This document shows, piece by piece, positions 2,674 through 3,273 of a DNA stretch of 64,000 nucleotides. Source of the DNA: Schmidtea nova. Lineage: Eukaryota. The notes under the pieces are model-generated. The model was not told the DNA's origin. It worked only from the letters and a program-made list of their open reading frames with translations, and searched no databases. The stretch is from contig CM097884.1 in the NCBI GenBank assembly GCA_044892505.1, positions 46,066,001-46,130,000 of the forward strand, written 5' to 3'. The position numbers and the translations under genes were made by a program. The number at the start of each line of letters is the position of its first letter. Positions within the stretch are counted from its first letter, which is position 1.

Positions 2674-3273
2674 TTATTTACAATTTAATAACACTGATGG
2701 TCTAATCACATTTAGGAGTTCCTGCTCTGATAGTCCGCTGAGCAAGTCTACTTCTATTCCTAGGCGATCCGCATATGCACGTCGCTCTCTCCGCTTTTTC
2801 GCTCCTAAGCGATTTCTTCGCTTGGTTCTTTGCGATCCTTGCGGAATTGTAGCTGTCACGGCAGTAACTGTAGTTACGGTCGATGCATTTTCCGTTTGGG
2901 TGCTCGTAGTTACCGATATCGAGTCCACCCATCGGTTAAAAGTGCTCGCTCTGATCACTGGGCGCAATTGCTGGGTGATAAAGTCTTGGGTCGACACCTT
3001 TAAGTAATTTGCCAGCTCTAATTTCAGGGCTGCAACCTCTCTGGCATGCTCATCAGCTACTTGTTCGGCTCTGTACCTGGCTTGTAGTATGGCTTTAACC
3101 CTCTCTGGGTTAAACCAGGTTGTCTTGATCCTCTGGTGCTCATTATTCAGCTGTCTTAAACGATTTTCCAGGACTCGTGAACGCGCCTTATGTTCTCGCG
3201 CCTCCTGCTTGTAATCTCTATCTTTGGTTTCGTTCATGTCTGTAAATATAACATCAATTATGGTATATGTCAT
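2674..3273 (-). CDS. Module gene B, copy 1: coiled-coil, TQT motif, basic patch and conserved GIEVDLLSGLS C-terminus; function unknown
   Basis: Intact 199-aa ORF, homologous to 12986-13549 and ~40380-40931. Confidence 0.85.
   Translation of the reverse strand: MTYTIIDVIFTDMNETKDRDYKQEAREHKARSRVLENRLRQLNNEHQRIKTTWFNPERVKAILQARYRAEQVADEHAREVAALKLELANYLKVSTQDFITQQLRPVIRASTFNRWVDSISVTTSTQTENASTVTTVTAVTATIPQGSQRTKRRNRLGAKKRRERRAYADRLGIEVDLLSGLSEQELLNVIRPSVLLNCK

Follow-up and report, generated by a model that had tools for sequence, protein, structure and literature searches.

An orphan protein gene with an LC8-type motif and a bZIP-like basic helix inside the long terminal repeat of a giant Burro-type gypsy element of Schmidtea nova

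Results

The window analysed here is a stretch of 64,000 nucleotides from the genome of Schmidtea nova. It contains three copies of a protein gene, B, all of which lie in long terminal repeats (LTRs), copy 1 in the 5′ LTR of a large retroelement and copies 2 and 3 in solo LTRs (Table 1). With copy 1 as tblastn query, the homologs were recovered where an earlier note on this DNA had placed them, at 2674-3273 (-), 12986-13549 (+) and 40359-40931 (+). Copy 1 shares 55% identity with copy 3 (about 190 aa, E 2e-61) and 43% identity with copy 2 (about 190 aa, E 8e-44). The motifs WFxP, IRA(S/T)TFxxW, TSTQTE/IETQTE/MGIQTD and GIEVDLLSGL, which had been described for the family, are indeed common to all three copies. 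A shared basic motif is also present, but the KR proposed as its start is not common to all three, as copy 2 reads KKRN and the motif is therefore better written as K[KR]RNxLGAK. Likewise, GIEVDLLSGL occurs in all three copies, but it does not form a strictly invariant C-terminus, being nearly invariant elsewhere and followed by 18 further residues. Copy 2 is open at 12986-13549. Copy 3 is broken: it lacks a start ATG, and a TGA stands in frame at 40641-40643.

Table 1. Position of gene B, its protein segments and the associated LTR features within the 64,000-nucleotide window
Feature	Position	Strand	Basis or remark
19-bp tandem array, internal 5′ region of the element	1..585	.	19-bp unit
First internal accessory ORF, C3HC4 RING finger, acceptor before ATG	1268..1726	-	PF13920, E 4e-9
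Primer-binding-site-like 18-mer, 6 nt behind the LTR	2261..2278	-	sequence
5′ LTR of Burro-type element, 3,288 bp, TG...CA; body leaves the window at the left end	2285..5572	-	partner 99.6% identical
LTR terminal ~240 nt, most conserved part of the LTR, predicted to be structured	2290..2530	-	double changes in 14/57 predicted pairs, 26 copies, counted without phylogenetic control
AATAAA over the B stop, predicted poly(A) signal	2673..2678	-	sequence
Gene B copy 1, likely coding region (187 aa + stop)	2674..3237	-	extendable to upstream Met at 3273
B residues 154-187, most constrained; GIEVDLLSGL at 2731-2760; not a leucine zipper	2677..2778	-	dN/dS; Gly160, Gly168, Pro180
B residues 136-153, basic helix with N-x7-R, bZIP-basic-region-like	2779..2832	-	profile comparison
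B residues 110-116 (TTSTQTE), LC8-type motif, anchor 2893-2901	2890..2910	-	conservation
B residues 9-103, two long amphipathic helices with WFxP kink between, predicted coiled coil	2929..3213	-	AlphaFold2
Predicted splice acceptor directly before the B start	3240..3246	-	sequence
Gene A, second orphan LTR ORF, 211 aa, Trp-rich, predicted alpha/beta	3426..4061	-	homologs in 122/130 loci
Conserved GC-rich hairpin region, predicted first intron	4850..5017	-	double changes in 5/28 predicted pairs, 12 copies, counted without phylogenetic control
Predicted leader exon end and splice donor, AATAAAAG/GT	5060..5073	-	20/25 distinct promoters
Predicted core promoter: ATTGG box, TATA, TCAGT initiator	5149..5203	-	kept in all three lineages
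Solo LTR, diverged lineage, B copy 2 open, gene A broken	10610..13963	+	TG...CA
Solo LTR, third lineage, B copy 3 and gene A both broken	38306..41326	+	TG...CA, flanks TAAT/TAAT

Separate searches of the host genome with copies 1, 2 and 3 returned at least 150 matches each. For further analysis 130 loci were fetched (90 top matches of the three queries and 40 picked by hand, with rows without stops being favoured), of which 120 distinct copies of B were kept after five that were not in one frame and five duplicates had been dropped. These copies bear on the start of the protein. Copy 1 can be read from the methionine at 3273, which would yield 199 aa; this reading was rejected in favour of the second methionine at 3237, which is probably the true start since a YAG acceptor directly precedes it in the copies. 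A start ATG in this register was found in 104 of the 120 distinct copies, with YAG 0-3 nt before it in 96 of these 104; in copy 1 the acceptor stands 2 nt ahead of the methionine. Near the end of B, AATAAA or ATTAAA was present in 113 of 120 copies. In the group of copy 1 the word TGTAAATA (2672-2682, -) overlaps the stop, and similar words follow several internal ORFs; we take it to be a Pumilio-type or a CFIm-plus-AATAAA word.

Planarian genomes are rich in Burro elements. The 3.3-kb LTR of such an element, an env-bearing gypsy element of about 29.5 kb, harbours B as an accessory gene, which is thereby linked to gag, env and pol. A host gene family was ruled out, as the LTR context was present in every copy whose ends were examined. 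Among the best 150 matches of B, 28 same-strand pairs 23.5-26.3 kb apart were counted by hand (56 rows), 25 of which are spaced 25.9-26.4 kb, and eight more pairs (16 rows) are 35-56 kb apart, which amounts to 72 paired matches out of 150. An example element measures about 29.5 kb and has LTRs of 3,327 bp that are 99.7% identical. Between them it encodes a zf-CCHC domain, a Monjiviricetes-type fusion glycoprotein, protease, reverse transcriptase (RT), RNase H, integrase and ankyrin repeats, with PF24664 (E 7e-71) standing ahead of RVP, RVT_1, RT_RNaseH, rve and Ank_2 in one frame and zf-CCHC upstream. Further ORFs between the LTRs are of RING, TRAF/MATH, coiled-coil and signal-peptide-like type, the TRAF cargo being a 476-aa ORF with TRAF RING, zf-TRAF and MATH domains. 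Among 11 ORF pieces from one element, which does contain a C3HC4 RING ORF, Pfam (E 0.01) recovered neither BIR nor BCL2-like domains. The polyprotein of the example element contains one in-frame TAG (6950-6952 of its stretch). As the element linked to the window is open at that place, this TAG is not a conserved read-through site; a frameshift lies near the same site in the window-linked element.

The partner of the 5′ LTR in the window (matched over 2283-5572) is located 43.6 kb away and is preceded by a purine-rich stretch, and both outer flanks of this element carry the 4-bp target duplication TACG. The element exceeds the example in length owing to a nested insert of about 17 kb (same contig, about 46032800-46050300), presumably a Polinton/Maverick, which encodes a type-B DNA polymerase (PF03175, E 1e-32). 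The 18-mer resembling a primer-binding site is, as we assume, of tRNA-Pro type. The solo LTR with copy 2 has no primer site and is flanked by TACG/TACT.

The anatomy of the element closely resembles that of Burro/GYPSM1, which is about 30 kb long and has a polyprotein of about 5,000 aa with Gag CCHC and ankyrin repeats, an env-like fusion protein before protease-RT-RNase H-integrase in the same order as here, MATH/TRAF and RING cargo and tandem repeats (PMC6431247). Unlike in Burro/GYPSM1, TRAF/MATH forms a separate downstream ORF in the element studied here (PMC6431247). The element type is known, and the assignment to the Burro type was made by anatomy. The text on Burro/GYPSM1 (PMC6431247, section 7) names no LTR protein genes, no LC8 motif and no bZIP-like protein, and the available parts of PMC8532177, PMC13465017 and PMC11410931 contain no description of genes within Burro LTRs. 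No such description was found in the portions of the literature covered here; the genome paper of 2018 and Lee et al. (2026, Dev Cell), or the supplements of either, may already annotate ORFs in the LTR.

Beside B, the LTR encodes gene A, for which neither a Pfam family nor a fold match was obtained (model pLDDT 58.7; best Z 2.8). The predicted promoter of the LTR lies about 370-420 nt from the LTR start and would give rise to a leader of about 100 nt ending with AATAAAAG at a GT. The promoter comparison comprised 25 distinct promoters from 43 stretches, with two of the 25 rows looking misplaced. In the example element YAG stands 1-5 nt before the start ATG of six of the seven accessory ORFs (for B, before the second methionine), the TRAF ORF being the one exception. 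Since the accessory ORFs carry YAG before their ATG, the sequence suggests that a common leader from the LTR promoter is joined to each accessory gene. Among the joints listed for four contig runs from one study none linked the leader to B, an outcome that weighs neither for nor against such splicing. A search for the predicted leader-B junction in the genome likewise recovered no copy. AATAAA at 5066-5073 (-) abuts the splice donor of the leader in 20 of 25 promoters and could couple donor use to premature polyadenylation. Of the two LTR regions predicted to be structured, the terminal one could be followed into as many as 25 of 28 diverged loci; between 2200 and 5700 Rfam yielded no match to E 1. 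Antisense to A and B, the 5′ part of the LTR has several short blocks that look like exons, with GT-AG borders, and run outward from the promoter (5290-5572, +); like blocks were seen at 10610-11250 (-) and 38306-38640 (-), and thereby in all three LTR copies. These blocks possibly represent a spliced antisense transcript from a two-way promoter.

The protein encoded by B has a pI of 10.4. In the AlphaFold2 model the blocks in residues 11-100 reach a pLDDT of 80-97, and an arginine-rich helix is present. The pLDDT drops below 50 for residues 113-136, with a helix being drawn to residue 115 at low confidence. The conserved Trp103 marks the end of the long helix, and the LC8-type motif follows about 10 residues behind it.

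Selection acts on the B protein. Past purifying selection, as proposed from the three window copies, was confirmed by dN/dS values of 0.10 (37 copies), 0.21 (20 copies) and 0.14 (21 copies) in the three large groups, which are pooled pairwise Nei-Gojobori estimates from pairs that are not independent and include some LTR partners; values near 1, named beforehand as speaking against the first description of B, did not occur. Between the window copies pS is 0.76-0.79 (saturated) and pN 0.27-0.43, which agrees with the synonymous-type divergence and protein conservation noticed earlier, and synonymous sites are saturated between the B lineages in general. Within the 37-copy group the constraint is unevenly distributed: dN/dS is 0.07 in the coiled region, 0.01 in residues 110-116, 0.55 in the linker, 0.06 in the basic region and 0.02 in the C-terminal residues 157-185.

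B is an orphan in the sets searched, with neither a homolog nor a fold match outside the host genome. Copy 1 had no homologs outside this genome in a set of 5.8 billion proteins, a 55-copy alignment found none in the same set (near lengths only), and none were found among 1.84 billion representatives. PDB sequences gave no match in one search and only matches at E 0.6 or worse in another, and the ESM Atlas gave no usable one (best 0.79; none for residues 130-187). A match to a known host family, which would have spoken against the first description of B, was not found either. As for folds, the best BFVD hit had E 0.84, PDB Foldseek returned none, and VIA-align recovered generic coiled coils alone (Z up to 6.6).

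The earlier note had proposed that the TQT motif of B is of the LC8-binding type. The motif is conserved in additional copies, with [TIMV]QT[DE] being intact in 107 of 120. Gln114 is kept in 114 and Thr115 in 117 of 120 copies. Around Gln114, position -1 is T/I/M/V in 119, -2 is E/S/G in 118, +2 is E/D in 117 and -4 is T/S/N in 115 of 120 copies, and no copy has a proline in the six residues before it. When the copies are clustered at 80% identity, most members read [TIMV]QT in 31 of the 32 clusters. As all four threonine codons are used at +1, the constraint on the motif acts on the protein. A single TQT is weak evidence, since [TIVM]QT arises in 21% of shuffles of the Thr-rich B, and it is therefore the conservation that counts. 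Across three lineages saturated at synonymous sites, the substitutions tolerated near the glutamine match the pattern of LC8 clients. B agrees with the rules for the anchor and its flanking residues set out in the available part of PMC6607443 in having the Gln anchor, branched or hydrophobic residues at -1 and +1, an H-bonding residue at -4, no proline before the anchor and no bulky hydrophobic residue at -2. The larger positive side chain at -3 that LC8 favours, though does not require, is absent, position -3 being T/I/M in 111 of 120 copies. The same text also states that many TQT peptides fail to bind LC8 (PMC6607443, available part). The LC8 reading survives its test, because the motif is intact in 107 of 120 copies and has a dN/dS of 0.01 beside a linker at 0.55.

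A complex prediction with two B and two host LC8 chains scored 0.55, against 0.01 for the best of three controls, and was graded as weak support. The runs agreed in at least 75% of contacts, with a partner pLDDT of at least 52. Of the solved pairs 51 of 78 attained the mark, as did 2 of 108 mismatched ones; passing scores of 0.60 or less comprised only five of the 78 solved pairs and all four passing mismatches out of 180. As LC8-TQT complexes are solved, the pass may reflect memory. Overall, it is likely that B really binds LC8. The host genome contains 61 dynein-light-chain matches, of which about 20 are full-length and intronless; they are clustered, with clusters near 5-7, 20 and 42-45 Mb of one contig.

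B had initially been described as carrying a basic patch. A basic helix is present, but it is more specific than a generic patch and resembles the basic region of bZIP proteins. Pfam bZIP_1 is the family that B copies match most often: 10 of 55 full-length copies did so (best E 0.0025), and in another set 8 of 42, with the match on residues 136-171 where its range is given. Among segments of the C-terminal 52 aa it again leads the Pfam families, being matched by 21 of 39 (best E 1.3e-4). Copy 1 matches bZIP_1 (PF00170) with E 0.0015 and 19.1 bits, which is under the gathering cut-off of 27.6. A bHLH or SAP/LEM/Rho-N fold, considered for the same segment, was rejected, being absent from the four Pfam families matched. 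The N-x7-R signature of B is conserved, with Asn142 in 117, Ala146 in 110 and Arg150 in 116 of 120 copies, and stands in the same register as in eight host bZIPs (11 genome matches, eight of them usable). From the Asn on, 8 of 12 positions are identical to one host protein, which by its motif we take to be Fos/ATF3-like. Scored against a profile of the eight host bZIPs, natural B segments reach a median of 16.9 bits and shuffles 4.8 (99th percentile 12.9); at most 4 of 200 shuffles reach the score of any B copy, for a segment that was picked after the match had been seen. An hhalign comparison of B with bZIP covers 19 columns (E 5.5e-4, probability 30%).

Other parts of the signature are non-canonical. 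In a bZIP protein the zipper would be expected to start 10 residues behind the Arg and to run for several heptads, with Ala, Ala and Ser/Cys at +3, +4 and +7 in AP-1 types. B shares N-x7-R and Ala at +4 with the Fos/ATF3 basic region, but has Gly145 at +3 (116 of 120), Arg149 at +7 (110 of 120), Thr at -4 and its first Leu-type residue one place early. No leucine zipper is present in B, which has Gly160 where all eight host bZIPs have Leu, followed by Gly168 and Pro180. As Gly, Arg and Thr replace Ala, Ser/Cys and Arg, the DNA specificity may be lost or changed; in Yap8 and Maf changed signature residues alter specificity (PMC7261193, available part). Given matches that lack the zipper and the full signature, B is not a member of the bZIP family, but judging from its sequence it may act like a zipperless one. 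SKN-1, which likewise lacks a zipper, shows that a zipperless bZIP can bind DNA (PMC10944932, available part). SKN-1 does so as a monomer with a CNC support (PMC10944932, available part); B differs in its predicted coiled coil at the N-terminus and its LC8-type site. Of the 25 LTR promoters, 12 have GTCAT downstream of the TATA box, at a distance of 22-70 nt from its start, against a mean of 1.1 and a maximum of 5 in shuffles. With kinship being ignored in this count and the word absent from window copy 1 and several of the closest copies, GTCAT is a weak lead, and the AP-1/CRE palindrome was not above shuffles.

Discussion

Small spliced accessory genes at or in an LTR regulate expression or act on the host, examples being HBZ, Rev/Rex/Rec, Tas of foamy viruses and sag of MMTV. 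No homology of B to HTLV-1 HBZ, Rev/Rex/Rec, Tas or sag was found. Unlike these regulators of complex retroviruses it lies wholly inside a gypsy-type LTR, on the sense strand, downstream of the apparent promoter and with its own putative acceptor and poly(A) signal.

The reading that we favour, though tentatively, is that a coiled-coil dimer of B, clamped by LC8, offers two basic helices to DNA and regulates its own LTR. A short leader from the LTR promoter would be spliced onto B, and the mRNA would end at the AATAAA over the stop. Residues 9-103 would self-associate, and an LC8 dimer, by analogy with known clients, would grip the two TQT strands, which lie some 10 residues past the helix, so that the C-terminal halves stay aligned, with clamp and coiled coil replacing the missing leucine zipper. 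The basic helix would fold in the major groove, backed by the conserved C-terminal 30 residues, and B would regulate transcription from the element's own LTR. In the LC8 clients Swallow and rabies P, a self-association domain likewise lies 10-15 residues before one TQT-type site, and in rabies P LC8 aligns the C-terminal nucleic-acid-binding domains (PMC12017986, available part). Binding was measured for these two proteins and is predicted for B, which has no sequence or fold kinship to either (PMC12017986, available part).

Several observations weigh against this reading of B as a clamped DNA-binding dimer. The bZIP match stays under the Pfam cut-off and the hhalign probability is low over its short alignment. 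The 20-residue flexible linker between LC8 site and basic helix is loose for a scissors grip, and no activation domain is evident. Within the LC8 motif the favoured positive residue at -3 is missing, and AlphaFold continues the helix through residue 115, albeit at low confidence.

An alternative that we consider unlikely, though not negligible, is a function of the Rev/Rex/Rec type, in which the LC8-clamped dimer would bind a structured RNA of the element with its arginine-rich helix and help unspliced genomic RNA to be exported or to be read through its poly(A) site. A switch of this kind seems to be required by the element, with YAG before six of seven accessory ORFs and a putative poly(A) signal at the B stop, and its LTR contains two conserved structured regions, although the terminal one is equally explained as R/U5 serving reverse transcription and integration. 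Patterns near the C-terminus of B, which we take to be export signals of class 1c/1d, are present in most of 55 copies; however, the match has a proline inside, and such patterns are common by chance. Furthermore, the helix keeps the non-basic residues of bZIPs (N, L, G/A, A) in bZIP order, which goes beyond composition and argues against a merely arginine-rich RNA binder.

It appears improbable that B assists the structure or trafficking of the particle in the manner of a viral phosphoprotein, which would bind nucleic acid unspecifically and be stiffened by LC8 or tied to dynein through it. Such a role would suit the high pI and an element that encodes a fusion glycoprotein, and the architecture resembles that of rabies P, with a dimer domain, an LC8 site about 15 residues on and C-terminal nucleic-acid-binding domains (PMC12017986, available part). 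The element, however, possesses a Gag with CCHC knuckles, the near-invariant non-basic residues argue for specific recognition, and the fold search gave no match to viral proteins (best E 0.84). The presence of this Gag also makes the ORF1/RNP chaperone role suggested in the earlier note, to which the helper reading comes nearest, unlikely, and the germline effector proposed there as an alternative is unsupported.

A function directed at the host is still less probable. In that case B would sit on AP-1-type sites, or on partners, of the stress and wound genes of the host, or else it would draw LC8 from a silencing complex. Other cargo of the element (RING, TRAF/MATH) is host-directed, a Burro1 IAP region is reported, at second hand, to protect stem cells (PMC13465017, available part), and LC8 is a subunit of the Piwi-linked SFiNX complex of flies (PMC7919418, available part). 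One LC8 site, however, is a poor sink in a genome with this many dynein-light-chain matches, and B should not pair with Fos/Jun because its zipper is missing. Similarly improbable is that both likenesses are convergent, with QT[DE] acting as a helix cap and the basic helix as a nuclear localisation signal: all matches lie under curated thresholds and the motif is frequent in shuffles, but the substitutions around the glutamine fit the LC8 pattern in three lineages whose synonymous sites are saturated.

Returning to B as an LC8-clamped regulator, its location in the LTR means that it is copied twice per element and remains in solo LTRs, from which it could act in trans. B is a concrete candidate regulator of Burro genes that offers two handles, the LC8 site and the bZIP-like helix. 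If the favoured reading is true, LC8 in place of a zipper would be a new route to a dimer that binds DNA, a gypsy element would be regulated like a complex retrovirus, and solo LTRs would be protein-coding units instead of inert remnants. A more far-reaching scenario is doubtful: a gypsy element would have captured a Fos/ATF3-like basic region, dropped the zipper and rebuilt the dimer via coiled coil and LC8, thereby gaining an LTR-encoded, LC8-gated DNA-binding regulator, and hundreds of solo LTRs would be self-contained expression units that act in trans on full-length elements and on AP-1-type sites of the host.

Other features of the window

Further features were observed outside the B-bearing LTRs. 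An ORF piece at 7980-8336 (-) matches Hep_59 (PF07052, E 1.6e-6) and is probably a host exon between elements. Adjoining the second solo LTR, the end of a non-LTR element with CCHC and, as we assume by motif, a restriction-like endonuclease lies at 13906-14592 (-), with a Pfam E of only 0.14. Decayed gypsy pol pieces are present at about 16800-18800 (+). A 976-aa ORF without interruption at 26891-29821 (+) reads like a SNF2 ATPase, presumably of CHD1/2 type. Finally, inverted repeats of 787 bp at 57774-58560 and 63217-64000, which are 99.4% identical and surround degenerate tandem arrays, probably represent a young DNA transposon.
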